DNA of 64,000 nucleotides, from assembly GCA_034180345.1 (NCBI GenBank), contig JAXFOQ010000040.1:6265-70264 (forward strand). Reading direction: 5' to 3'. Below the pieces are notes generated by a model. It saw only the letters and a list, made by a program, of their open reading frames with translations, searched no databases and was not told the origin of the DNA. Below, one piece after another: positions 15,107 through 28,061 of the stretch (position 1 is its first letter; the number at the start of each line of letters is the position of its first letter). This DNA is from Erysipelotrichaceae bacterium. Lineage in GTDB: Bacteria; Bacillota_I; Bacilli_A; Erysipelotrichales; Erysipelotrichaceae. Position numbers and translations under genes: made by a program.

Positions 15107-17002
15107 ATGAGTGTTAGAATTCAAGATGATTTATATCAAGCAGTTAATGGTGAATGGTTAAAAAGTGCTGTAATACCTGATGATCGCCCGACTACTGGTG
15201 GTTTTGCAGACCTAGATCAAGAAGTGGAAAAAATCTTAATGAAAGATTTTAAAGAGATGGCTTGCGGTGATAGGGAGATTCCTAATATTTTAGGAATGAA
15301 GGATGCGATTAAATATTATAAACAAATTTTAAATATTGAAAAGCGTAATCAAGAGGGTATTAGCCCACTTATGCCTTTGTTGAATAAAATTAAAGCTATT
15401 AAGTCCCTTGATGATTTTAATAGTAGAATTAAAGAATTGGCATTTGATAGTATTGAATTACCGATTAATTTCTTTGTGCAGGCAGATATGAAGGATGCTT
15501 TGAACCATAGTTTTACTATTCAAGGTCCAGACATCATTCTTCCAGATACGACATATTATGGTAATGATGCTGGTAAGAGTTTGTTGGAAATTTATCAAAA
15601 TACCGCTTTAAAATTGATGGATTATACTGACTTAACGGATGCAGATAAAAAAAGATATGTTGAAGATACATTGGAATTTGATGAGCTTGTATCAAAAAGA
15701 GTAAAGAGTCAATTAGAGTGGGCGGACTATGTTAATGACTATAATCCGATGGCTATTGATGATGTTATTGAATATTTAAGACCTTTTGATATTCGAGGAT
15801 TTTTGTATGCGGTCTATGGTGATGATTTACCAAGGACAATTATTGTTAGAGATCCTAGAGCGATTAAAGAGTTTAAAGAATATTTTAATGAAACAACCTT
15901 TACGAAGTACTTGCATTGGTTATATGTTAGAACCCTCTTATCTGGAGCATCATTTTTATCAGAAGAAATGACAGCTCTTTCTCATGTGTATCGTCGTAGT
16001 CTTGTAGGTATTGAAAAGGATCCTGTTTTAGAAAAACAAGCCTATCAACGAGCATCTTCAATGTTTGATGAACCAATCGGAGTTTATTATGGACGCACAT
16101 ATTTTGGTGAAGAAGCTAAGCAGGATGTAGTTTTGATGGTTAAGAAAATTATCAAAGCCTATGAGGGAAGAATGAGAAAAAATACCTTCCTTGAAGAAGC
16201 TACAAAGGAAAAAGCCTTACTTAAATTAGCTAATATCACAATCAAAATGGGCTATCCTGATGAGGTTCATCAGTATTATGAATTGATGAGTGTAAATGAA
16301 GAAGATTCATATTTTGAAACAACACAAAAATTAAATCATGTTTTGTTGGAAAGAAATTTGAATAAACTTAATAAGGCAGTGGATAAGACAGAGTGGGAAA
16401 TGCCAGGACATATGGTTAATGCTTGTTATGACCCAAGTAAAAATGATATTACCTTCCCATCGGCAATTCTTCAAAAACCTTTCTATGCGATTGATCAAAG
16501 TGTAAGTGAAAATCTTGGTGGTATTGGTGCGGTTATTGGCCATGAAATATCACATGCCTTTGATAATAACGGTGCGCATTTTGATGAAAATGGAAACTTA
16601 AACAATTGGTGGCTTGAAAAAGACTTCGCTGAATTTGAGAAACTTACTAAAAATATGATTGAACAATTTGATGGCATTGATTTCTGTGGCGGTAAAGTCA
16701 ATGGTGAACTTGTTGTGAGTGAAAATATTGCCGATAATGGTGGTATGGGGGCGACACTTGAAATATTGCACCAAGAAAAAGATGCTGATTTTGAGGCCTA
16801 CTTTAAAAACTGGGCAAGGGTATGGTGTCATAAATCTAAAGAGGAATATGTATTATTGTTATTGAGTAATGATGTACATGCCCCAGGTGAGTTGCGTAGC
16901 AATATGCAGCCTCGTAATTTCCAAGAGTGGTATGATACTTTTGGAGTTACTCATGAAGATAAAATGTATCTACCTGAAGAAAAACGGATAACGATTTGGT
17001 AA
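15107..17002 (+). CDS. pepO: M13-family neutral endopeptidase
   Basis: HEISHAFD zinc motif, ENIADNGG, and NAxY motifs; 631 aa, typical of PepO. Confidence 0.88.
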   Translation: MSVRIQDDLYQAVNGEWLKSAVIPDDRPTTGGFADLDQEVEKILMKDFKEMACGDREIPNILGMKDAIKYYKQILNIEKRNQEGISPLMPLLNKIKAIKSLDDFNSRIKELAFDSIELPINFFVQADMKDALNHSFTIQGPDIILPDTTYYGNDAGKSLLEIYQNTALKLMDYTDLTDADKKRYVEDTLEFDELVSKRVKSQLEWADYVNDYNPMAIDDVIEYLRPFDIRGFLYAVYGDDLPRTIIVRDPRAIKEFKEYFNETTFTKYLHWLYVRTLLSGASFLSEEMTALSHVYRRSLVGIEKDPVLEKQAYQRASSMFDEPIGVYYGRTYFGEEAKQDVVLMVKKIIKAYEGRMRKNTFLEEATKEKALLKLANITIKMGYPDEVHQYYELMSVNEEDSYFETTQKLNHVLLERNLNKLNKAVDKTEWEMPGHMVNACYDPSKNDITFPSAILQKPFYAIDQSVSENLGGIGAVIGHEISHAFDNNGAHFDENGNLNNWWLEKDFAEFEKLTKNMIEQFDGIDFCGGKVNGELVVSENIADNGGMGATLEILHQEKDADFEAYFKNWARVWCHKSKEEYVLLLLSNDVHAPGELRSNMQPRNFQEWYDTFGVTHEDKMYLPEEKRITIW

Positions 17003-17009
17003 TATTATA

Positions 17010-17046
17010 AAATTCCATCTTATAATTGGATGGAATTTTATTTTAG
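17010..17046 (+). terminator. intrinsic terminator of pepO
   Basis: AAATTCCATC-N9-GATGGAATTT hairpin followed by TATTTTA. Confidence 0.75.
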
Positions 17047-17051
17047 GCAAT

Positions 17052-17160
17052 AAAAAAACTTACATTGTGTAAGTTTAGTGTACTACATGTACAACCCTTG
17101 CGGGCGGTTAAGATAAATCTTTATTTGAACTCGTTATGTAGTTAATTAGGGATCAACTAC
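17052..17160 (-). ncRNA. tracrRNA: tracrRNA of the type II-A locus
   Basis: Plus-strand 17134-17156 is identical to CRISPR repeat positions 10-32 at 21 of 23 nt, and 17124-17128 matches repeat positions 2-6, so the anti-repeat is on the minus strand. Downstream on the minus strand lie small hairpins (AAGA/UCUU, CCC-GCAA-GGG, GUAC-N5-GUAC), then the terminator hairpin ACTTACA-N3-TGTAAGT followed by T7 (17052-17076). The ends are approximate. Confidence 0.8.
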
Positions 17161-17166
17161 ATTCTT

Positions 17167-17194
17167 AGTATAACTCAAACAAATATAAAATCAA
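17167..17194 (-). promoter_or_regulatory. putative sigma-A promoter of tracrRNA
   Basis: On the minus strand, TTGATT (17194-17189), a 16 nt spacer, then TATACT (17172-17167). This places the start near 17160, just upstream of the anti-repeat. Confidence 0.5.
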
Positions 17195-17242
17195 TATTAA
17201 TTTTAATATTTTATTTTGTTGTGCATTTTTTTGTACATAAGA

Positions 17243-17271
17243 TTGATTATAATATTGTTAAAGGATATAAT
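17243..17271 (+). promoter_or_regulatory. putative sigma-A promoter of cas9 operon
   Basis: TTGATT (17243-17248), a 17 nt spacer, then TATAAT (17266-17271). An AGGAG SD follows, then the ATG at 17289. Divergent from the tracrRNA promoter. Confidence 0.5.
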
Positions 17272-17288
17272 TACAAAAAGGAGAAAAT

Positions 17289-17873
17289 ATGTACAAATTA
17301 GATGAATATTATTTAGGGTTTGATATAGGAACAAATTCTGTCGGTTGGGCAGTTACTGACAACAAATATAAGGTATTAAAATTTAATGGAAAATCTATGT
17401 GGGGTGTTCGGATGTTTGATGAAGGTAAAACAGCTTTAGAACGCCGAACTTTCAGAGCTGTCAGAAGAAGAAAAGAAAGACAAAAATTTAGATTAAGTTT
17501 ACTTGAAGATTTATTTAAAGATGAAATTTCTAAAAAAGATATGGGTTTTTTTATGCGTTTAAAAGAAAGCGCTTACTACAAGGAAGATAAAAGTATATGC
17601 CAAAAGAATGCGCTATTCAATGATATTAATTATAAAGATAAAGACTATCATAAAGAATATCCGACCATTCACCATTTGATTAAACATATTATAGATGATA
17701 AAAGTCCTGTTGATATTCGCTTGCTATTTCTTGCGATTCATTATTTAATAAAAAATCGAGGGCATTTTCTATTTGCTGGAAATTTTAAAATTGAAGGATC
17801 GTTTAATGAACTTTTCAATAATCTAAAGAAAACGATTGAAGATGATTTGGGTATAGTTTTGATTGTGATTTAG
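17289..17873 (+). CDS. cas9: Cas9, N-terminal fragment (RuvC-I, arginine-rich bridge helix); frame ends prematurely
   Basis: YLGFDIGTNSVGWAV (RuvC-I catalytic Asp), RRTFRAVRRRKERQKFR bridge helix, and YPTIHHLI..NRGHFLF. The frame stops at TAG 17871-17873, while homology continues in the -1 frame. Confidence 0.9.
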   Translation: MYKLDEYYLGFDIGTNSVGWAVTDNKYKVLKFNGKSMWGVRMFDEGKTALERRTFRAVRRRKERQKFRLSLLEDLFKDEISKKDMGFFMRLKESAYYKEDKSICQKNALFNDINYKDKDYHKEYPTIHHLIKHIIDDKSPVDIRLLFLAIHYLIKNRGHFLFAGNFKIEGSFNELFNNLKKTIEDDLGIVLIVI

Positions 17874-20800
17874 ACAAAATCGAAAAAATTTTAGGAGATA
17901 AATCACTCGGTATTACCAGAAAAAAAGAAAGTTTGATTAAAGAAATCAAAATTGATTCAAATGATAAAACTGCTAAAGAGATAATTAAAGCTATCTGTAA
18001 TTTATTAAGTGGTGGTAAAGAATCAATCAAAAAAATATTTTCTGATGTGGAAAATGAAGATGTTGCTAAAATTCAATTTTCTTCTGCCAATTATGATGAG
18101 GATAAAGATAAACTTGAGGCTGTTTTAAATGAAAAAATACTTTTAATTGAACAATTAAAAGCCCTATATGATTGGTCGGTGCTGGAAGAAATGCTAAAAT
18201 TTGCCGATGCAGATAAAGATGGGATAAAACGCATTTCATCGGCGAAAGTAAATATTTATAATCAACATAAAGATGATTTGAAAAAATTAAAAAAGGTTAT
18301 TAAAAATCATTATACTGCAAAAGATTACAATGATATTTTCCGTTCTAAAAATATCGAAAATAACTATGTTTTATATAGTGGCAAACCAATTATAAATTCT
18401 AAAAATAAGGTTATTACAAATTGTACTCAAGCGGAATTTTGTGATTTTTTAAAAAAGAATTATTTTAATAAAGATTTTGATGATGACTTATATAAAGAGG
18501 TCAAAGAAAAAGTTGTCAATGGAATTTTACTTCCCAAGCAAGTTAATTCTGGCAATGGAGTTATTCCATATCAACTAAAAAAGGCCGACTTAATTAAAAT
18601 GCTAGATAATGCAGAAAAATATTTTGAATTTTTAAAGGTTAGTGATAACTATGGAAGTGTAAAAGATAAAATAATTAAATTAATGGAATTCCGTATTCCA
18701 TATTATATCGGACCGATAAATCCTTATCATAAAGACGGGATTCACTGTTGGGTTGAAAGAAAAATTGAGCATGAAAAAGTAATGCCTTGGAATTTTAACG
18801 ATGTTATCGATGTGGAAACTACCAGGGAAAAATTTATTACTACTAGAACCAATAAATGTACTTATCTTTTGGGGGAAGATGTATTACCGAAAGAATCACT
18901 TTTATATTCTGAATTTATGATTTTAAATGAATTGAATAATTTACGCTTTAGCGGTAAAACATTAGATGAAATTAATTCAGGATTAAAATCAGAAATATTT
19001 AATCATTTATATAAAAAGGAAAGAAAAGTAACAATCAATAAAATTAAAGAATTGATGAAATGCAAGGGGATTAATACTGAAGATTTAGTTGTTTCAGGTG
19101 TAAATGGTGATTTAAAAGCTAATTATAAGTCGTATTTAGATTTTAATTTTATATTAGGTAATGAAATTGAAAAAGAGAATACTAAAAATATGATAGAAGA
19201 TATCATTAAATATATTGTTATTTTTGGTGCAGAAAAACAAGTATTGAAAGAAATGCTAAAAAAGAAATTTGGAGATAATTTAACAAATGATCAAATTAAA
19301 AAAATAGTTAAATTAAATTACAAAGAATGGGGAAGATTATCTCGTAAATTATTAACGGGCATTGAAGGTATAGATAATAATACTGGCGAATATACCAGTA
19401 TTATTGGAATGATGCGTAGTACTAATAATATTTTTATGGAATTATTATCAAAGGATAAATATACCTTTTTAGCTGAAATTGAAAAAAATAACAATCCAAA
19501 AAATATTGATAAGTTAAAATATGAAGTTTTAGATGATTTATATGTTTCTCCTGCTGTAAAAAGATCTTTATGGCAAACACTTAAAATCACAAACGAAGTG
19601 GTTAAAATTATGAAACACTCTCCTAAAAAGGTTTTTATAGAGATGACAAGAGAACATTCTGATAATCATAATCAAAAAGATTCTCGAAAAGAATTTTTAA
19701 AGAAAATATATAGTAAATTAGAAGATGAGTACAAGGATGTCGGACAATGTTGCGATAAAATCGAAGATCGAAGATTTAGAAGTGATAGAATATTTTTATA
19801 TTTTACACAACTAGGAAGATGTGCATATTCAAATAGAACTATAGATTTTGAAGATATTTTCAATGAAAATATTTACGACATTGATCATATTTATCCTAAG
19901 TCAAAATTTTATGATGACGGAATTGATAATAAAGTTTTAGTTTTGAAAGAATATAATGCTAAAAAAGATAATAAATACCCACTTGTTGATGAATTATCTC
20001 ATTTCCGTCAAGAAAGATTATGGAAGATTTTGCGCCAAAAAGAACTTATTTCAGAAAAGAAATATCAACGCTTAATGCGTAAAGAACCTTTTAGCGATAA
20101 GGAGTTAAGTGAATTTATTGCTAGGCAGCTTGTAGAAACTAGTCAATCAGCTAAAGCTTCTGCTGAAATATTGAAAAATTATTTAACAAAGAATAATGAA
20201 GAAACTGAAATTGTTTATGTAAAAGCTGGCAATGTTTCGCGTTTTAGACAATATTTTGATTTGATCAAATGTCGTGATATTAACGATTTTCACCACGCAC
20301 ATGATGCCTATTTAAATATTGTGGTAGGCAATGTTTATAACACTAAATTTACAAAAAGCCCACAAAATTTTATTAAGGAAAGCTCGAAAAATAGAAATTA
20401 TAATATTGATATTAAAGCGAACTTTATTCATGATATTAAAAGAGGCGATGTTGTTGCTTGGAAAGAAAATGAGTCGATTAAAATCGTTAAGAAGCAAATG
20501 CTTAACAATAATATTCAAACATCATATCAAAGTCAGATTAAAATCGGACAATTTTATGATCAAAATATAGTTGGGAAAGATTCCGCAAAATGCCCTATTA
20601 AAGGTAAAGGGGTTATTAGTGATTTATCTAAATATGGTGGTTATAGCGGGATTCGTTCTTCTTATTTTTCATTGATTGAATATAAACAAAAAAATAAAAA
20701 TATTAGAAGAATTGAAAGTGTACCATCTTATATTGCTTCAAGAATTGAAAAAGATTATAAATTATTGGAATTATATTTTAAAGAATTGTTATCTACAACT

Positions 20801-21361
20801 GAAGTTAAAATTTTGATTGATAAAATTAAAATTGGTACAGAATTAATTTATGGGGGATTTAAATATAAAATTAATGGTAATGATAAACAAAATTTGATTA
20901 TTTGCCCTGTAATTCAATTGATATTAGAAAAGAATCAATATAATTATTATAAAAAGATTAGCTCATTTTTAAATAAGATGTCTTCAAATAAAAATATTGA
21001 AGTAGATGAAATTAAAGACAAAATTTCTGTAAAAGAAAATGTCGACTTTTATCAGACTTTAATTAATAAAATTGATAATTCAATTTTTAGTAATAGGGTT
21101 AATAATCAAAATAAAGATATAAAAAATGGTTTTGAAATATTTAAAAATCTTTCTATTAAAGATCAAATTTTGGCATTGAGTGAATTATTAAAAATCTTTA
21201 AGGCTAAACCAATAAATCCAAATTTTTCATTGATAAATGGTTCTAAAAGTATTGCTGTACCAAGAATTTCAAAAAATTTGAACTGCAAAAATACTTATAA
21301 ATTGGTTTATAAATCGGTTACTGGTTTGTTTGAGGAGGTAATAGATTTAAATAAAATATGA
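17846..21361 (+). CDS. cas9: Cas9, remainder (REC, RuvC-II, HNH, RuvC-III, PI) in the -1 frame relative to the N-terminal fragment
   Basis: This frame is open from 17846 (TGA at 17843-17845). IPYYIGP; HNH motif DIDHIYPKS..DN-KVL; RuvC-III DINDFHHAHDAYLN. The stop overlaps the cas1 ATG. The track starts it at TTG 17933, but there is no independent SD. Confidence 0.9.
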   Translation, partial: FGYSFDCDLDKIEKILGDKSLGITRKKESLIKEIKIDSNDKTAKEIIKAICNLLSGGKESIKKIFSDVENEDVAKIQFSSANYDEDKDKLEAVLNEKILLIEQLKALYDWSVLEEMLKFADADKDGIKRISSAKVNIYNQHKDDLKKLKKVIKNHYTAKDYNDIFRSKNIENNYVLYSGKPIINSKNKVITNCTQAEFCDFLKKNYFNKDFDDDLYKEVKEKVVNGILLPKQVNSGNGVIPYQLKKADLIKMLDNAEKYFEFLKVSDNYGSVKDKIIKLMEFRIPYYIGPINPYHKDGIHCWVERKIEHEKVMPWNFNDVIDVETTREKFITTRTNKCTYLLGEDVLPKESLLYSEFMILNELNNLRFSGKTLDEINSGLKSEIFNHLYKKERKVTINKIKELMKCKGINTEDLVVSGVNGDLKANYKSYLDFNFILGNEIEKENTKNMIEDIIKYIVIFGAEKQVLKEMLKKKFGDNLTNDQIKKIVKLNYKEWGRLSRKLLTGIEGIDNNTGEYTSIIGMMRSTNNIFMELLSKDKYTFLAEIEKNNNPKNIDKLKYEVLDDLYVSPAVKRSLWQTLKITNEVVKIMKHSPKKVFIEMTREHSDNHNQKDSRKEFLKKIYSKLEDEYKDVGQCCDKIEDRRFRSDRIFLYFTQLGRCAYSNRTIDFEDIFNENIYDIDHIYPKSKFYDDGIDNKVLVLKEYNAKKDNKYPLVDELSHFRQERLWKILRQKELISEKKYQRLMRKEPFSDKELSEFIARQLVETSQSAKASAEILKNYLTKNNEETEIVYVKAGNVSRFRQYFDLIKCRDINDFHHAHDAYLNIVVGNVYNTKFTKSPQNFIKESSKNRNYNIDIKANFIHDIKRGDVVAWKENESIKIVKKQMLNNNIQTSYQSQIKIGQFYDQNIVGKDSAKCPIKGKGVISDLSKYGGYSGIRSSYFSLIEYKQKNKNIRRIESVPSYIASRIEKDYKLLELYFKELLSTTEVKILIDKIKIGTELIYGGFKYKINGNDKQNLIICPVIQLILEKNQYNYYKKISSFLNKMSSNKNIEVDEIKDKISVKENVDFYQTLINKIDNSIFSNRVNNQNKDIKNGFEIFKNLSIKDQILALSELLKIFKAKPINPNFSLINGSKSIAVPRISKNLNCKNTYKLVYKSVTGLFEEVIDLNKI

Positions 21362-22233
21362 GTTGGAGAACGATTGTTATTAGTGAGTGTGCCAAAATTG
21401 ATTATAAAATGAATTATTTGGTAATTAGAAAAGACAATGAAGTAAATAGAGTTTTTATTAATGAAATTGCTATATTGATTATTGAAAGCACAGCTGTTTC
21501 AATGACTTCTTATTTAATGTCCGAACTAATTAAAAATAAAGTTAAAATAATTTTTTGTGATGAAAAAAGAAATCCTGAGTCAGAACTTATTTCTTATTAT
21601 GGCAGTCATGATACCAGCGAAAAAATTAGAAGACAGATGCGATGGAATAAAGAACTTAAATCATTGTTATGGTCTGTGATTGTTAGTGAAAAGATTAAGC
21701 AACAGATGTTATTTTTGAAAGAATTAAAAAATGATCGTTATAAACTTTTGGAACAATATACTTATGAAATTGAACAAGGAGATTCAACAAATAGAGAGGC
21801 TCATGCAGCTAAAGTATATTTTAATTCTCTTTATGGCAATGAGTTTAGCAGGGTGGATGATTGTAATATTAATGCAGCTTTAAACTATGGTTATTCTTTG
21901 CTTCTGTCTGCATTTAATCGCGAAATAAGTAAAAATGGTTATTTGACACAAATTGGTATATTTCACGATAATATGTTCAATCATTTTAATTTATCTTGTG
22001 ATTTTATGGAACCTTTTAGACCTATTATCGATCGTAAGGTTTATTCTATGAAACTTGAAAAGTTTGACTCAGAAGAAAAATTGGAGTTAATCGACTTAAT
22101 TAACTCTAAGGTAAATATTGATTCAAAAAATCATTATTTACTTAATGCTATTCAAATATATACAAAAAGTATTTTTGATGCTTTAGATGATAGTGATTTA
22201 TCGTTAATAAAAATGTATAAGTATGAGTTATAG
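21358..22233 (+). CDS. cas1: CRISPR integrase Cas1 (type II)
   Basis: 291 aa, with MSWRTIVIS.. N-terminus, NREAHAAKVYF and ALNYGYS motifs typical of type II-A Cas1. ATGA overlap with cas9. Confidence 0.92.
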   Translation: MSWRTIVISECAKIDYKMNYLVIRKDNEVNRVFINEIAILIIESTAVSMTSYLMSELIKNKVKIIFCDEKRNPESELISYYGSHDTSEKIRRQMRWNKELKSLLWSVIVSEKIKQQMLFLKELKNDRYKLLEQYTYEIEQGDSTNREAHAAKVYFNSLYGNEFSRVDDCNINAALNYGYSLLLSAFNREISKNGYLTQIGIFHDNMFNHFNLSCDFMEPFRPIIDRKVYSMKLEKFDSEEKLELIDLINSKVNIDSKNHYLLNAIQIYTKSIFDALDDSDLSLIKMYKYEL

Positions 22234-22543
22234 ATTTATGAGAGTATTGGTGTTTTTTGATTTGCCGACAACTACAGCCGATGAAAGAAGAGAGTACACG
22301 AAGTTTCGTAAATATTTAATTGTTAATGGTTTTATGATGCTTCAAGAATCGGTATATAGTAGGCTTGTTCTTAATTATTCTGTTTGCGAGGCTACAATTA
22401 TGGCTCTTAAAAATAACAGTCCAAATAGTGGCTTGGTTCAAGTGATTAGTATTACTGAAAAACAATACTCAAGAATGGAGTTTATTGTTGGTAAAGAAAA
22501 AAATGATGTTATAAATGATGATAGGAGATTAATAGTATTTTGA
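22223..22543 (+). CDS. cas2: Cas2 (type II)
   Basis: 106 aa; MRVLVFFDLPT..YTKFRKYL..GFMMLQESVY is the Cas2 ferredoxin-fold N-terminus. Overlaps the end of cas1. Confidence 0.9.
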   Translation: MSYRFMRVLVFFDLPTTTADERREYTKFRKYLIVNGFMMLQESVYSRLVLNYSVCEATIMALKNNSPNSGLVQVISITEKQYSRMEFIVGKEKNDVINDDRRLIVF

Positions 22544-23208
22544 ATTTAGTATTTTATGATTGGAATTTGAATATTTCATTTAAGGAAAATATTGTTAATG
22601 TTTTGGTAATTGAAAATAAAATTTGTTTTAGAAATATTATTGAAGAATTAATTGATAATATTGACGGAGTTAAGGAAAGTATTATTTTGTCAGAAAATGA
22701 TAAACAATTAAAAATTTCAAAATATGTAGAATTAATTGAATCTATCTTCTTTATTAATCTCAATAATACAAAATTTATTAAAAAAGTTATCGAAGAATTA
22801 AAAGATGATGCAGTTTCTGAAAACAATTTTTTAAAAACAAACGCATTATTATCGTTGGTTGATAAAAATATCGGAGATTTAATTGCTAATAGTCGTTTTA
22901 ATTTATCTTATGAACCTTGTTCAATAAATAATTTATTAAAAAATGCAGAAATTAGATTTGATTATACTTGTGAAACTATTGTTGAAAAAATTATGAATTA
23001 TTTAGAATTATGCAATAAAGTTTTAGGTATAAAAATATTTATTTTTATAAATATTAAAGATTTATTTACAGAAAAAGAATTTAAAGAGCTTTATAAATTC
23101 TGCAATTATATAAAAATAAATTTATTTTTAGTAGAAAATGAAGAAGGGCCACATTTAGATAGTGAAAAATATTATATTATAGATGAAAATTTGAATGAAA
23201 TATATTAG
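22540..23208 (+). CDS. csn2: Csn2 (type II-A signature protein)
   Basis: 222 aa in the canonical position between cas2 and the array. Acidic and Lys-rich, with overall Csn2-like sequence. TTG start overlaps the cas2 TGA. Confidence 0.8.
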   Translation: MNLVFYDWNLNISFKENIVNVLVIENKICFRNIIEELIDNIDGVKESIILSENDKQLKISKYVELIESIFFINLNNTKFIKKVIEELKDDAVSENNFLKTNALLSLVDKNIGDLIANSRFNLSYEPCSINNLLKNAEIRFDYTCETIVEKIMNYLELCNKVLGIKIFIFINIKDLFTEKEFKELYKFCNYIKINLFLVENEEGPHLDSEKYYIIDENLNEIY

Positions 23209-23272
23209 AATATGAGTATATATGATCCTTGTGTGTATCGTTTCACATTTTAACTACATACTATGATTTGAG
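23209..23272 (+). promoter_or_regulatory. CRISPR leader (64 nt) ending in ATTTGAG
   Basis: AT-rich spacer between the csn2 stop and repeat 1. The last 7 nt (23266-23272) are ATTTGAG, the leader-repeat junction motif described for streptococcal type II-A leaders. Confidence 0.7.
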
Positions 23273-23968
23273 GTTTGAGAGTTGTGTAGTTTATTAGGGA
23301 TCAAAAACTAATACCTCCTGACAGTATAAGTAAAGATAGTTTGAGAGTTGTGTAGTTTATTAGGGATCAAAAACAAAAATAAATGCACTATGACGCTAAC
23401 CTTTGTTTGAGAGTTGTGTAGTTTATTAGGGATCAAAAACATAACCACTTTGATAGTAAGGCTCTTGATAGTTTGAGAGTTGTGTAGTTTATTAGGGATC
23501 AAAAACACAAAATAATTGAATTTGTCTTTATTATTTGTTTGAGAGTTGTGTAGTTTATTAGGGATCAAAAACTAATGCACAGCTCCACGCTTTTGATACT
23601 CAGTTTGAGAGTTGTGTAGTTTATTAGGGATCAAAAACCAGATAAGAATTATAAAGTAGATGACCGCAGTTTGAGAGTTGTGTAGTTTATTAGGGATCAA
23701 AAACTTTGAATCCGCAGTTAAATCATCTTCCCACGTTTGAGAGTTGTGTAGTTTATTAGGGATCAAAAACCCATTTACTAATGGTCGGAGTGGCTCTACT
23801 GTTTGAGAGTTGTGTAGTTTATTAGGGATCAAAAACCCAGCTTATGACGCACTATATATCGAATTAGTTTGAGAGTTGTGTAGTTTATTAGTGATCAAAA
23901 ACGTATTAAACAAAAGATTTTTGATAGCTTTTGTTTGAGAGTTGTGGGTTTGTGATCTGATAGGGATA
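23273..23968 (+). CRISPR. type II-A CRISPR array: 11 x 36-nt repeats (last degenerate), 10 x 30-nt spacers
   Basis: The repeat GTTTGAGAGTTGTGTAGTTTATTAGGGATCAAAAAC occurs at 23273 and then every 66 nt, with exact periodicity. Repeat 10 carries G>T at 23892. Repeat 11 (23933-23968) keeps only the first 14 nt. Confidence 0.98.
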
Positions 23969-24080
23969 CTTATAAGTTTTTTAATTTTTCAAAGGTTTTA
24001 TAATGAATGAAATTACATTTATGATACAACATAGTCTATGAAGTAAGATATTTGGAAATTTAAATAAAGAGGATAAAGAA

Positions 24081-25124
24081 ATGGATAAAAAAGATGAAAT
24101 GATGATTGTAAATCATGAATCCCTTGTAAAAAAGATTTATATTATTAGGGGACAAAAGGTGATGCTTGACTTTGAATTAGCCGAAATCTATGGATATGAA
24201 ACAAAGGCTTTTAATCAGCAAGTAAAAAGGAATATTGAAAAATTTGATGAAGACTTTATGTTCCGATTAACCGACGAAGAAGTATCTGAACTTTCAAGGT
24301 CACAAAATGTGACCTTGAACAAGAGTGCAGGAAGAGGTAGTAATATTAAGTACAATCCTCATGCCTTTACCGAGCAGGGAATCTATATGCTGATGACAGT
24401 TCTCAAAGGAGAGCTTGCGGTCAAGCAGAGTAAAGCTCTGATTCGTACCTTTAAGAAGATGAAAGACTATATCGTAGAAAATCAAGGGTTGATTGGGAAA
24501 AGAGAGTTTTTGCAGCTTTCGATGCAGATTACAAGCAATGTCGTGGAAATGCAGGATTTAAGACGAGATTTAAGAGATGTGGAAGATCAGGTGGCGGAAG
24601 TGATGGACACCTTAAATAATGTGGTGCATAAATCCGAACTGTCTGATTTGATCCTTGATCTCAGCAATCCGCAACTCAAATACGGATTTTTACTCTTGAA
24701 CGGACAACCGATTGAAGCAAATCTTGCTTATAAGGACATTTACAGCATAGCGAAAAAGAGTATCTATATCGTCGATAACTACATCGGAGTGAAAACTTTG
24801 GTCTTGCTAAAAGATGTCCCTTCATCGGTAGAGGTCATTATATTCAGCGATAACATCGGCAAAGGACTTCATACCCTTGAATATCAGGACTTCTGTCAAG
24901 AATATCCGTTTAGAAAGATAAGATTCCAAAAATCCGGTGGAGAGTTTCATGACAGATACATTTTTATCGACTGGAATACCGAACATCAACGAATCTATCA
25001 TTGTGGAGCGTCCTCCAAAGATGCAGGACAAAGAATCACAAGCATAACAGAAGTGGTCGATCAGATGATTTATACCGACCTTATCAATAATCTCTTGAAA
25101 AATCCGGTGTTGCAGTTAAAATAG
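24081..25124 (+). CDS. ORF6N/KilA-N-like DNA-binding domain protein with C-terminal PLD-like (HxR..D..GxS) domain
   Basis: The N-terminus IYIIRGQKVMLDFELAEIYGYETKAFNQQVKRNIEKFDEDFMFRL..HAFTEQGIYMLMTVLKG is the ORF6N signature. A helical linker follows. The C-terminus SIYIVDNYIG..FHDRYIFID..HCGASSKD resembles an HKD-type motif. A good AGAGGA SD is present. Confidence 0.7.
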   Translation: MDKKDEMMIVNHESLVKKIYIIRGQKVMLDFELAEIYGYETKAFNQQVKRNIEKFDEDFMFRLTDEEVSELSRSQNVTLNKSAGRGSNIKYNPHAFTEQGIYMLMTVLKGELAVKQSKALIRTFKKMKDYIVENQGLIGKREFLQLSMQITSNVVEMQDLRRDLRDVEDQVAEVMDTLNNVVHKSELSDLILDLSNPQLKYGFLLLNGQPIEANLAYKDIYSIAKKSIYIVDNYIGVKTLVLLKDVPSSVEVIIFSDNIGKGLHTLEYQDFCQEYPFRKIRFQKSGGEFHDRYIFIDWNTEHQRIYHCGASSKDAGQRITSITEVVDQMIYTDLINNLLKNPVLQLK

Positions 25125-25287
25125 AAGTGGAAAATGGGTTGAAAATTTTAAAAAATATGTATCCAATCCTTGACACAAGGGTGGAAAATAAAATAGTAAA
25201 TATTTTTAAGAAGGCTTATTTAGTATCGTAAAAGTGCATTTTTTATCGAGCAATTAATTTTGGCATCTAAATTTATTTTTATTAAAG

Positions 25288-25296
25288 TGATACAAT
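25288..25296 (+). promoter_or_regulatory. extended -10 promoter element for the helicase-nuclease gene
   Basis: TGATACAAT (TG-N-TACAAT) lies 24 nt upstream of the ATG at 25320. A GGGG SD-like run is at 25311-25314. Confidence 0.4.
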
Positions 25297-25319
25297 ATAT
25301 ATGGAAATATGGGGTAGAT

Positions 25320-28061
25320 ATGAACACTGAAAATAATATGATTATCATTAAAGGTGAAATAAAAACTTCTGATGTAAAATCGTGTAAATATGATGGTAAT
25401 ATTAATAAATGGACTGTAAAATTTAATAATGAAAAACCATATTTTTATGAATTTCATAATTTAGAAAAATTAATCAAACCAAAAGTTTTAAATAAAAATA
25501 TGTATCGTATAAAAAATAAAGGTGTGGAATTATTCGATATTAAAGATATACGCGTTTTTGAGGGTAAAAATGACAAATATTGGCATATTTGTTTTGATAA
25601 CGGAAGTAAAAAAGATTATCGTGAGAAAGAATTAGAAATATTTGAATCAGTTTTAAATGAAAAAGAATCTTCAAATGTATTTGAATACATAAAACAAATT
25701 GCGGAATTAAATGAAATTGTAAATGATTTAACTGGTGAAAAAATATTAATTAAAAAATATAATAATTTAACATTTTTAAGTAACGATGTAGTTTTGTCAA
25801 AATATTTGAACCCTACCTTATTGAAAAATAGAAAGTCAAATATAGATTATAAACCAATTTTTCCTTTTGGATGTAATAATAGTCAATACACCGCAGTGAA
25901 AAGTGCTATGGAGAATCAAATTAGTGTTATTCAGGGACCTCCTGGAACAGGAAAAACACAAACAATATTAAATATTATTGCCAATATATTGATACAAGAT
26001 AAAACAGTTCAGATAGTTTCTAATAATAATTCTGCTACTGCAAACATTTATGATAAATTATCTTCTAATAAATATGGTTTAGGCTTTATTGTTGCAATTT
26101 TAGGCAATGAGAATAATAAAAAAATCTTTATAGAACAACAAAATAAAAATTATCCTGATTTTTCTACTTGGAAAATAGAAAAAGATTTAATTGAGGAATT
26201 ACAAAAATCAGTTCCAGAGCAATTCATAAAATTAAAAGAAATTTTTGATAAGCAAGAAAAATTAGCATATTTAAAACAGGAATTTTCACAATTAAGTACA
26301 GAACAGGAATATTTTAATCAATATTCTAATAATTCAGATGTAAATTTTGAAAAAATAAAATTTAAGAAAAATTTGCATTCAAATTCTGTAATGAAATTAC
26401 TACAAGAGTGTCAATCGATTTCAGAAAATAAAAAAACAATAGGATTTTTATTTAAAGTAAAATCTTTTTTTACATGCGGAATAAAAGACCGCAGTATATA
26501 TAATCAAGATATTTCAAATATAATTATTGTATTTCAATATATGTATTATTATGCAAAAAATAATGAATTATTGTCAGAAATTGATGTTCTTGAAAAATAT
26601 TTGGATAATGCCGATGGAACTTTACTTGATAATTTATGCGAAGAGTCAATGAAAATATTAAAGGACAAACTCGTGAGAAAATATGAAGTTAATGATAGTC
26701 GCAAAATATTTAATGAAGATAGTTTTCGGGAAGAATCTAATAAGATTTTAGAAGAATATCCCGTTATATTAAGTACAACATTCTCATCGACAAATAGTTT
26801 AAATTCTCATATTATATATGATTATTTAATTATTGATGAAGCATCACAAGTGGATATAGCTACAGGTGCATTAGCTCTTTCTTGTGCAAAAAATGTTGTT
26901 ATTGTAGGCGATACTAAACAATTGCCAAATATTGTTAATAATGATGTGAAATCTAAGGCAAATGCAATATTTGATAGTTTTAATCTCAATGAAGGGTATA
27001 GATATACAAAAAGTTTTTTACAGTCTGTTATTGATGTATTTTCAGATTCAAAGATACCAAAAACATTATTAAGAGAACATTATAGATGTCATCCGAAAAT
27101 AATTAATTTTTGCAATCAAAAATTTTATAATGGCGATTTAGTTATAATGACAAAAGACAAAGGTGAAAAAGATGTTTTATCAGTAATTAAAACTGCGGTT
27201 GGTAATCATGTGCGCGATAATTATAGTCAGCGTCAAATAGATGTAATTAAACAAGAAGTACTCGCAAAATATAATTTAGATATGGATAAAACAGGAATTA
27301 TAACACCATATAGAAATCAAGTTAATGCCTTGCATAATGACATTGAGAATGTAAATGCTGATACAGTGCACAAATTTCAAGGAAAAGAAAAAGATAATAT
27401 TATTATATCGACAGTAGATGATGAGATAACAGATTTTGTAGATGATCCATTTTTAATTAATGTGGCCGTATCTAGGGCTAAAAATAAATTGATATTAGTT
27501 ACAACTGGAAATGAACAAAATAAAGAACGGAATATAACGGATTTAATTGACTATATTAAGTATAATAATTTTGAGGTTAAAGATAGTAATGTTTATTCAA
27601 TTTTTGATTATTTATATAAACAATATGATAAAAAAAGAATTTTATATTTAAAAAAACATAAAAAAATATCTGAATATGATTCAGAAAACTTAATGTATTT
27701 GCTAATTGAAGAAATTATTGCGGATAGTAGATATAGTGATTTAGATGTAGTTTATCATTATCCATTGAAAATGTTGATTCAGAATACGGCATTATTAAAT
27801 GAAGAAGAATATAAATATGCTATGAATCCATTAACACATTTAGATTTTTTGATATATAACAAAATTGGTAAAAAACCAGTTTTAGCAATTGAGGTTGATG
27901 GATACAGGTATCATGAAGAATATACAGTGCAATCTTCACGCGATTTATTAAAAGATCATTTGCTAGAATTATATGATATTCCACTACTAAGATTTAAGAC
28001 AAATGGTAGCAAAGAAAAAGAAATAATTATTGATATGTTAGAAAAGATAATTTCATCATAA
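25320..28061 (+). CDS. SF1 (Upf1/DNA2-like) helicase fused to C-terminal DUF2726/Vsr-like PD-(D/E)xK nuclease, with unknown ~200 aa N-terminal domain
   Basis: Walker A GPPGTGKT (25935-25958), DEASQ, GDTKQLP, REHYRCHPKIINF, TVHKFQGKEKD, and VAVSRAKNKL. The C-terminus HLDFLIYN..LAIEVDGYRYH..IPLLRF has E878 at 27891. Start is set at the ATG at 25320; the track ORF begins at an upstream TTG at 25260. Confidence 0.85.
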   Translation: MNTENNMIIIKGEIKTSDVKSCKYDGNINKWTVKFNNEKPYFYEFHNLEKLIKPKVLNKNMYRIKNKGVELFDIKDIRVFEGKNDKYWHICFDNGSKKDYREKELEIFESVLNEKESSNVFEYIKQIAELNEIVNDLTGEKILIKKYNNLTFLSNDVVLSKYLNPTLLKNRKSNIDYKPIFPFGCNNSQYTAVKSAMENQISVIQGPPGTGKTQTILNIIANILIQDKTVQIVSNNNSATANIYDKLSSNKYGLGFIVAILGNENNKKIFIEQQNKNYPDFSTWKIEKDLIEELQKSVPEQFIKLKEIFDKQEKLAYLKQEFSQLSTEQEYFNQYSNNSDVNFEKIKFKKNLHSNSVMKLLQECQSISENKKTIGFLFKVKSFFTCGIKDRSIYNQDISNIIIVFQYMYYYAKNNELLSEIDVLEKYLDNADGTLLDNLCEESMKILKDKLVRKYEVNDSRKIFNEDSFREESNKILEEYPVILSTTFSSTNSLNSHIIYDYLIIDEASQVDIATGALALSCAKNVVIVGDTKQLPNIVNNDVKSKANAIFDSFNLNEGYRYTKSFLQSVIDVFSDSKIPKTLLREHYRCHPKIINFCNQKFYNGDLVIMTKDKGEKDVLSVIKTAVGNHVRDNYSQRQIDVIKQEVLAKYNLDMDKTGIITPYRNQVNALHNDIENVNADTVHKFQGKEKDNIIISTVDDEITDFVDDPFLINVAVSRAKNKLILVTTGNEQNKERNITDLIDYIKYNNFEVKDSNVYSIFDYLYKQYDKKRILYLKKHKKISEYDSENLMYLLIEEIIADSRYSDLDVVYHYPLKMLIQNTALLNEEEYKYAMNPLTHLDFLIYNKIGKKPVLAIEVDGYRYHEEYTVQSSRDLLKDHLLELYDIPLLRFKTNGSKEKEIIIDMLEKIISS

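Follow-up and report, generated by a model that had tools for sequence, protein, structure and literature searches.

A single-gene cassette beside a CRISPR array

The stretch of DNA analysed here (64,000 nt of contig JAXFOQ010000040.1 from an Erysipelotrichaceae bacterium, called the window throughout) carries, between a type II-A CRISPR array and a helicase gene, an open reading frame (ORF) whose product joins an ORF6N domain to a C-terminal domain with a predicted phospholipase D (PLD)-like fold. An initial annotation had singled this gene out as a candidate nuclease effector with a role in defence. We find that it belongs to the candidate defence family PDC-S05, that a set of five residues in its C-terminal domain is unchanged in all full-length relatives aligned and that, on the evidence of its junctions, it adjoins the CRISPR array only because a mobile cassette was inserted at a TG within the last II-A repeat. 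The gene and its product are laid out as follows:

24081..25124, + strand: coding sequence of the 347-amino-acid ORF6N and PLD-like protein (PADLOC PDC-S05 family), from the ORF and hidden Markov model (HMM) matches
24129..24401, + strand: ORF6N domain (KilA-N/Bro-N class), residues 17-107, from the Pfam match
24411..24653, + strand: helical charged linker, residues ~111-191, from AlphaFold2 helices of low predicted local distance difference test (pLDDT) score
24699..25121, + strand: divergent PLD-superfamily domain, residues ~207-347, from AlphaFold2 models, Foldseek and a profile match
24948..24971, + strand: H290-D-R292-Y-I-F-I-D297, an HxR(x)4D variant of HxK(x)4D, from invariant residues and the alignment with Nuc
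25005..25028, + strand: G309-A-S311-S-K313-D314-A-G316, in place of GSxN, conserved in the domain alignment

The coding sequence starts with ATG, preceded at a spacing of 7 nt by a Shine-Dalgarno (SD) sequence of its own (AGAGGA, 24068-24073), and has 347 codons, as the initial annotation had it. The ORF6N domain, which had been placed at residues ~15-110, is matched by the whole of Pfam PF10543 (residues 17-107 on model positions 1-86 of 86, E = 1.4e-33, 115.4 bits against a cut-off of 27.8); Virulence_RhuM (PF13310) has no match in the protein at E <= 1. In the AlphaFold2 model of the whole protein, helices at residues 111-133 and 141-178 (low pLDDT) lead to a C-terminal domain (~207-347) with pLDDT of ~90, and the helical residues ~130-190 and the strands SIYIV (227-231) and EVIIF (251-255) that had been read from the sequence are all seen in it, the first as the long helix 141-178. 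On this model the linker is probably a coiled-coil element through which the protein would dimerise. The gene was also correctly said to be unlike both its neighbours in composition, its GC content being 0.39-0.40 against 0.19-0.29 for the cas genes and the helicase. Its ratio of nonsynonymous to synonymous substitution rates (dN/dS) against close homologues is 0.04-0.08, copies in cassettes that lack a recombinase included.

A PLD-like fold with a divergent motif

Modelled by itself, the C-terminal domain reaches a pLDDT of 89.9 and a predicted template modelling (TM) score of 0.85, and the 50 best structures that Foldseek retrieves for it from the PDB all belong to the PLD superfamily, among them a bacterial PLD, the DUF1669 domain of FAM83, TrmBL2/TrmB, NucT, Zucchini, BfiI, Nuc, PLD3/4, vaccinia F13 and Tdp1. 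TM scores against the single-domain nucleases lie at 0.55-0.60 (Zucchini 4h4a 0.59/0.58, NucT 0.57, Nuc 1byr 0.55, BfiI 0.55). A sequence search of the PDB with the window protein finds no significant match; a profile of the domain finds Nuc alone, weakly (E = 1), and in that alignment 'vHDRyiiiD' falls on 'qHDKVIIVD', the HxK(x)4D motif of Nuc. The resemblance to PLD nucleases with arginine in place of lysine, which had been noticed from the sequence, is thus borne out by the modelled fold and, weakly, by this alignment, and the fold comes with a conserved histidine. The motif itself, FH290DRYIFID-x11-GASSKD, is present as described, except that it had been ended at 25019, 3 nt short of its true end: the codon of H290 occupies 24948-24950, that of D297 24969-24971, and G309-D314 occupy 25005-25022.

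H290, D291, R292, D297 and K313 are unchanged in 57 out of 57 full-length relatives, whose identity to the query ranges from 25 to 98%, and D232, Y234, T239, G309, S311, D314 and G316 are conserved in at least 90% of them. An alignment of 40 C-terminal domains gives the same picture, with G309, S311, K313, D314 and G316 invariant along with the H, D, R and D of HDR-x4-D. Compared with Nuc, the histidine and the aspartate are in register, the lysine is replaced by an invariant arginine, the spacing to the second motif is 11 residues rather than 6, and GxSxKDxG stands in place of GSxN. As a side observation, residues 285-322 (HDR...GASSKD) weakly match the end of the NCBIfam 'VPA1262 family N-terminal domain' (E = 1.1e-4, far below the cut-off), and the VPA1262-type family may be another one with this motif.

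Likenesses to Nuc, NucT, Zucchini and BfiI extend from the fold and the single motif per chain to the order of elements, an HDK/HDR-x4-D strand being followed by a hairpin and a loop containing G and S. BfiI further resembles the window protein in having its PLD domain fused to a separate DNA-binding domain, although that domain, a B3 one, stands at the C-terminus of BfiI. Beside the arginine and the GxSxKDxG loop, the window protein differs from Nuc-type nucleases by a hairpin five residues longer and by a sequence similarity that stays under family thresholds.

Family membership and distribution

The window protein matches PADLOC model PDLC04869 of PDC-S05 over its full length (residues 2-340 on model positions 3-302 of 306, E = 1.1e-107), and three more PDC-S05 models match its N- or C-terminal half. 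PDC-S05 ranks among the most abundant candidate defence types of one large metagenome survey, and one representative protected E. coli B, in which plating fell about 1000-fold for T7 and T5 and about 10-fold for T4 (PMC12881386). The statement of the initial annotation that no characterised system has this architecture therefore has to be withdrawn: the architecture is already catalogued as PDC-S05. PDC-S05 is defined by HMMs and island enrichment, and in the literature searched we found neither a mechanism nor a fold, including the PLD assignment made here, for it; nor did we find a paper in which a PLD fold, or insertion into CRISPR repeats, is connected with ORF6N or RhuM proteins, in a literature search that was incomplete and is no proof of novelty. 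What the window protein shares with PDC-S05 is the full-length match, the lone gene and a DNA-binding head of the KilA-N/Bro-N/ORF6N class, whereas the tested member is RhuM-type by its description, a domain for which the window protein has no match.

A search of 1.84 billion cluster representatives with the C-terminal domain (residues 195-347) returned 1175 matches at E <= 0.001, more than 8000 relatives were found by shared words, and pattern scans confirmed by tblastn located at least 592 stretches in genomes and at least 579 in metagenomes. The domain is a portable module, attached to heads that vary (ORF6N, tandem ORF6N, KilA-N in P0244, Bro-N/RhuM, ORF6N plus RhuM in P0223). The same domain is found in a 'RhuM family protein' of the B. 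thetaiotaomicron plasmid p5482 (sHDRFLIVD...GASLKDLG; hhalign 99.1%, E = 1e-18), a further point in common with PDC-S05; this domain is all that some RhuM-annotated proteins share with the window protein. On this conjugative plasmid (locus L197, 27316-30410), a gene for a small serine recombinase and one of the Fic family come after the RhuM-family HDR gene.

The gene behaves as a single-gene unit, as had been supposed. Its immediate neighbours in 80 species genomes, 145 proteins in all, include no conserved partner, every family occurring in at most six of them; they are a mixed set in which genes of mobile elements are frequent (TraG/VirD4 proteins, serine recombinases, helix-turn-helix (HTH) regulators and transposases; 5 of the 145 proteins are recombinases), with some restriction-modification, mad and Ptu genes. 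A large Bacteroidales clade has the gene first in a mobilisable element with a relaxase, MobC/NikA, HTH_17 and DUF5906.

The distribution of the family also bears on whether the gene is a prophage anti-repressor of the Ant/KilA/Bro type, acting in a lysis-lysogeny switch. PHROG anti-repressor families do match the protein (best E = 3.2e-21), there is a weak Phage_pRha match, and IMG/VR holds 27 loci of the family among 2.9 million contigs. The PHROG matches are confined to residues 8-175, however, which is to say to the N-terminal DNA-binding module, and the closest IMG/VR matches are serine-recombinase elements. The C-terminal domain occurs in 3 and the ORF6N subtype in 4 of 50,697 phage records, all of them uncultured contigs, against 56 plasmids that carry the domain. 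Neither these phage records nor plasmids contain near-identical DNA of the gene, and both the cassette and its surroundings within the window are free of phage genes. Homologues are therefore not found mainly inside prophage modules, the gene being almost absent from cultured phages, and an anti-repressor role seems highly unlikely, largely refuted by this distribution.

Ends and target sites of the cassette

The gene is the only one in a high-GC cassette of 1,237 bp (23947-25183), of which the following parts can be recognised, together with the array into which it was inserted:

23273..23902, + strand: type II-A CRISPR array with 10 full 36-nt repeats (GTTTGAGAGTTGTGTAGTTTATTAGGGATCAAAAAC) and 30-nt spacers, the insertion target
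23933..23946, + strand: first 14 nt (GTTTGAGAGTTGTG) of the truncated eleventh and last repeat, ending in the TG crossover dinucleotide; host arm of the attL-like junction
23947..23969, + strand: left cassette end, GGT followed by the 20-mer TTGTGATCTGATAGGGATAC (23950-23969)
23970..24080, + strand: 5' untranslated region (UTR) of the cassette, with a promoter-like site (23997-24025) and the SD (24068-24073)
25159..25183, + strand: right cassette end GTATCCAATCCTTGACACAAGGGTG, which ends in TG

The consensus of the cassette ends is TTGTGnTCTGATAGGGATAC on the left and GTATCCAATACTTGACACAAGGGTG on the right, and the right end joined to the left end makes an imperfect dyad of about 50 bp (GTATCC...CACAAG..TG..CTTGTG...GGATAC). 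With up to 4 mismatches allowed, the left 20-mer abuts the 5' halves of II-A or I-B repeats at ten other loci (L003, L006, L011, L036, L091, L094, L103, L105, L115 and L165), and the right 25-mer lies 35-75 nt past the stop codon in 38 junctions. The 5' UTR of the cassette is conserved with L003, L036 and L165, and the site at 23997-24025 would serve as its promoter. DNA 85-94% identical to window positions 23933-25196 or 24050-25190 turns up in unrelated surroundings on numerous contigs from oral Firmicutes, among them Filifactor, Lachnoanaerobaculum, Lachnospiraceae oral taxon 107, [Eubacterium] yurii, Catonella, Johnsonella and Bulleidia.

The clearest insertions are those in which both halves of the target survive. 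In L003 the insert lies between GTTTGAGAGCTTTG and TTAATTCAGATAGGTGTAAAGC, and its excision, with the TG shared, rebuilds the local 36-nt II-A repeat exactly; the same is true of L103 and of the two insertions in L165. Type I-B repeats are likewise split exactly in L094 and others, between ATTAGAATAGAACCAGATTG and GAATGTAAAG, and joints of a right end to a left end form tandem cassette junctions in L094 and L036. The two cassettes of L165 (positions 103 and 3601) lie in one II-A array and are preceded by an identical spacer and half repeat, so that the block of spacer and cassette was presumably duplicated rather than inserted twice independently. Counted without redundancy, in scans of up to 80 loci each in which metagenome contigs are included and may be related, 35 right junctions comprise 13 in I-B repeats, 5 in II-A repeats (L098 included), 7 at one position in IS200 tnpA genes, 2 tandem joints and 8 elsewhere; 18 of these 35 and 10 of 15 left junctions thus lie in CRISPR repeats.

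The window has such a junction on the left side of the cassette, where the 14-nt part of the eleventh II-A repeat directly abuts the left cassette end. A recognisable 3' half of the repeat is absent beyond the right end, where the next 22 nt match it at ~7 of 22 positions (by eye); either a later deletion or a terminal repeat that had already decayed is therefore assumed. A search for the uninterrupted locus by way of homologues of the helicase yielded no close genome, the nearest relative being only 69% identical. The right cassette end also holds a TTGACA, followed 16 nt on by AATAGT in the host DNA, which makes a promoter-like site (25170-25197, + strand) facing the helicase gene, by consensus match only.

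Position in the array was judged from a candidate anti-repeat of the tracrRNA at ~17118-17157 on the minus strand, upstream of cas9, whose duplex with the repeat reaches -37 kcal/mol with the usual bulge. Its location and strand imply that crRNAs are read from the + strand, which puts the cassette at the trailer end of the array, the leader and 10 repeat-spacer units being intact. The duplex scan gave no other good site, so that an anti-repeat at 23933-23969 or past the gene was rejected, and Rfam has no match in window positions 16500-26000. In the tenth repeat (23885-23891) a G-to-T change gives TTAGTGATC for TTAGGGATC, as expected of decay toward the trailer end.

The number of junctions in CRISPR repeats could be taken to mean that the protein has an accessory or anti-CRISPR function, all the more as integration into repeats is a means by which the S. 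pyogenes phage PhiAP1.1 weakens immunity (10.1101/2020.10.09.333658). We regard such a function as exceedingly improbable, given that the same cassette is also inserted in IS200 tnpA genes and other sites, that the wider family has no link to CRISPR and that the window insertion, at the trailer end, has spared the leader and 10 repeat-spacer units. Like the cassette, PhiAP1.1 integrates into II-A repeats, in many cases the terminal repeat, and has hybrid half-repeats at its junctions, but it is a phage and relies on 8 bp of identity between attP and the repeat, whereas the cassettes measure from 1.2 kb to several kb and have dyad ends of ~25 bp with a TG core. Cyanobacterial Tn7-like transposons insert in the spacer area next to repeats, not within the repeat. 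From both PhiAP1.1 and Tn7-like elements the cassette further differs in its use of I-B repeats and IS200 tnpA, its serine recombinase triplets and its defence-type cargo.

Recombinases and co-cargo

Serine recombinase genes are found neither in the cassette nor anywhere in the 64-kb window. At some 20 related loci, by contrast with the window copy, the gene (from ~30 nt before its start) directly follows one to three genes for large serine recombinases with Resolvase, Recombinase and Zn_ribbon_recom domains. Triplets of these, ~510-560 amino acids each, stand next to the right cassette end in L005, L010, L013, L015, L085, L086, L088-L090, L101, L102, L166, L170 and L172. For the left end of the recombinase-carrying elements no end motif was found, the homology between loci stopping inside an ABC-ATPase gene. 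The conserved dyad ends and, in related loci, the junctions that precisely rebuild the target are those of serine-integrase-type elements, from which the window cassette differs in having no recombinase and only its left junction in a recognisable repeat. From this end structure, we infer that the window copy is non-autonomous, a derivative that large serine recombinases moved or left behind.

Other cassettes carry further genes. Two GmrSD_N (DUF262) proteins are encoded after the ORF6N-PLD gene in L036, two weak HEPN_Cthe2314 matches (below the Pfam cut-off) follow it in L165, and L094 (1067-4596) has both cassette ends around a C5 DNA methylase and an OLD/AriA-like ATPase, the ORF6N gene being absent. 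On the strength of this co-cargo, the gene-less L094 cassette, the purifying selection, the heterogeneous neighbours and the Bacteroidales mobilisable element, the gene is best seen as cargo with a defence-type role.

Some cassettes that hold this gene alone are nevertheless inserted precisely, with exact reconstitution of the repeat, in several different arrays, and their ends have the dyad symmetry that a dimer would call for. PLD chemistry, moreover, conserves bond energy, as is generally known for PLD and Tdp1. The ORF6N-PLD protein might then move the cassette itself, as a site-specific PLD-type nuclease or strand-transferase that would act as a dimer on the dyad ends and cut and rejoin them through phospho-histidine. 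This seems improbable to us: the L094 cassette has the same ends without the gene, autonomous-looking copies hold large serine recombinases, for which a dyad of ~50 bp with a central dinucleotide is typical, and more distant family members are without these ends. We see a similarly slim prospect that a dimer recognising the dyad ends, or a palindrome in its own gene described below, or both, drives or guides the insertion of small defence cassettes into CRISPR repeats by a new recombination chemistry.

A covarying palindrome in the ORF6N coding DNA

Where the ORF6N domain divides into its two halves, the gene contains a further conserved feature, supported by covariation:

24293..24319, no strand assigned: perfect 27-bp palindrome TTCAAGGTCACA-AAA-TGTGACCTTGAA, codons of residues 71-80 (L-S-R-S-Q-N-V-T-L-N)

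The 12-pair stem is kept in 51 distinct homologues (alignment A7), and 10 of the 12 pairs have changed on both sides (for example CG in 32 and UA in 18 sequences, or AU in 26 and CG in 21). Cells of the alignment are paired in 96% of cases, compared with 80% in shuffles, none of 500 of which reached the observed value, and with 23-48% when the partners are slid. G-U pairs are almost absent, and the paired changes span codons, so that two amino acids are altered at once (TCA..GTG, TCG..GCG, TGC..GGC). The pattern speaks for selection acting on the symmetry of the DNA or on a DNA hairpin, rather than on protein or RNA. As single-stranded DNA the palindrome folds at -12.8 kcal/mol (z = -5.3). Since it is also present in two ORF6N-only genes (L203 and L204), it is a feature of the ORF6N module rather than of the fusion with the PLD-like domain. 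One possibility is that it is a symmetric operator for the ORF6N-PLD protein as a dimer; another is that it forms a DNA hairpin.

A predicted DNA-targeting nuclease

Our preferred reading, which we hold to be about evenly poised between right and wrong, is that the gene encodes a mobile-element-borne, single-gene defence protein, a dimeric PLD-like nuclease that targets DNA, its activity and phenotype being predictions. Single-motif PLD nucleases such as Nuc, BfiI and Zucchini are dimers with one composite active site and work through a phospho-histidine intermediate. By analogy with them, the ORF6N domain would bind and select DNA, the helical linker would make the protein a homodimer and two single-motif PLD-like domains would together build a composite active site like that of Nuc and BfiI; dimerisation would be needed because there is one motif per chain. 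His290 would attack the DNA phosphodiester to give a covalent phospho-histidine intermediate, with Arg292 and Lys313 taking the phosphate-binding roles of the canonical lysine and asparagine. The target would be invading DNA, be it of a phage or of a competing mobile element, so that both the host and the carrier element could gain, and the cassette would presumably be moved by the large serine recombinases seen directly upstream in related copies. By the same analogy, dimerisation, DNA cleavage, phospho-histidine chemistry and a defence phenotype are all expected rather than observed properties of the ORF6N-PLD protein.

Several observations speak against a nuclease of this kind. The canonical signature is HxK(x)4D(x)6G(S/T)xN, and here HxR(x)4D(x)11GxSxKD is found instead; Pfam PLDc and PLDc_2 have no match in the window protein at E <= 1, and weak PLDc_2 matches are seen in only 4 of 40 relatives (best E = 0.0011). 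TM scores of 0.55-0.60 at root-mean-square deviations of 4-6 Å speak for the fold but say nothing for an active site, and TrmB, TrmBL2 and FAM83 among the structural neighbours have non-catalytic PLD-like domains. The gene comes last after three serine recombinases and beside the att site in ~20 close homologues, a position that also fits an accessory role in recombination. Finally, the PDC-S05 protein that was tested is described only as carrying Virulence_RhuM, not as having the ORF6N and HDR architecture (PMC12881386).

The fold by itself is no proof of an enzyme, since non-catalytic proteins (TrmB, FAM83) are among the structural neighbours of the domain. The invariant set of His, Arg, Asp, Lys and Asp, however, argues for a functional phosphate-binding or catalytic site. 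With a PLD fold present and the sequence definition of HKD proteins failed, we therefore call the domain a divergent PLD-like domain and not an HKD nuclease.

The best whole-protein Foldseek matches are in fact TrmBL2 and TrmB, archaeal regulators with the same three-part layout, in which a DNA-binding head is followed by a long helix and then by a C-terminal PLD-like domain, although their head is a winged helix and not ORF6N. A TrmB-like regulator or recombination accessory factor, with a coiled coil and a non-catalytic PLD-like sensor domain, would bind an att site or a palindrome and steer expression, or the direction of integration and excision by serine recombinases, without cutting. We think this, the strongest of the alternatives, rather unlikely, although it would suit the position of the gene directly past one to three large serine recombinases and 35-75 nt from an att-like right end at ~20 loci, the small serine recombinase gene after the p5482 relative and the conserved palindrome, a typical binding site for a dimer. 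The PLD-like domain of TrmB and TrmBL2 is not catalytic and lacks the His/Arg/Lys/Asp signature, which in the family of the window protein is invariant and falls on the catalytic motif of Nuc. An adjacent recombinase is, moreover, missing from most of the wider family, the gene remains under strong purifying selection in cassettes that have no recombinase, and phage protection has been obtained with a PDC-S05 member expressed on its own (PMC12881386).

The helicase and the CRISPR-Cas locus

Upstream of the array are cas9, cas1, cas2 and csn2-like ORFs, and downstream lies the gene to which the initial annotation had pointed as a helicase-nuclease:

25320..28061, + strand: superfamily 1 (SF1) helicase (AAA_11/AAA_12) of 913 amino acids with a C-terminal DUF2726 (nuclease-like tail), 195 bp past the ORF6N-PLD gene

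This helicase belongs to a very widespread family (7040 matches at E <= 1e-50) and partly matches the PADLOC models MkoA (E = 1.3e-52) and MkoC. As it lies downstream on the same strand, the two genes could be thought to form a Mokosh-like system, the PLD-like protein and the SF1 helicase with DUF2726 corresponding to MkoB and MkoA. Such a pairing is very improbable and was rejected: the PLD-like protein has no MkoB match at E <= 1 and in PADLOC matches PDC-S05 only, the cassette boundary at 25183 separates two genes that differ in GC content, and the helicase homologues have no ORF6N partner. The nearest of these homologues (67-69% identical) stand alone by a His_Phos_1 gene, and the helicase beside the cassette copy of L167 is only 22% identical to that of the window. 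By its host-like GC content, its location outside the cassette and its solitary homologues, then, the helicase is not a partner of the ORF6N-PLD gene. One helicase homologue sits in an island that also holds a reverse transcriptase and a RhuM protein.

The adjacency of the gene to a CRISPR array and to this helicase, on which the proposal of a defence role had partly leaned, is thus real as regards position, but it is no evidence of function, because the gene came in a mobile cassette that integrates into repeats and the helicase occurs without it.

Implications for the PDC-S05 family and for CRISPR arrays

Assignment of the C-terminal domain to the PLD superfamily, with its invariant HxR...KD site, gives PDC-S05 a catalytic hypothesis that can be tested at H290, R292 and K313, and this PLD-like module would unite ORF6N-, KilA-N- and RhuM-headed proteins as one effector class. 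The covarying palindrome of the ORF6N module is a conserved signal at the level of DNA. If the protein did move its own cassette, CRISPR arrays would be landing pads, and the recombination chemistry behind them one that mobile DNA is not known to use. Should the insertions of this cassette family, which also brings other restriction-type genes, prove general, CRISPR arrays would be integration hotspots for innate defence genes, and 'CRISPR-adjacent' genes would need to be checked for cassette ends before a functional link is claimed.

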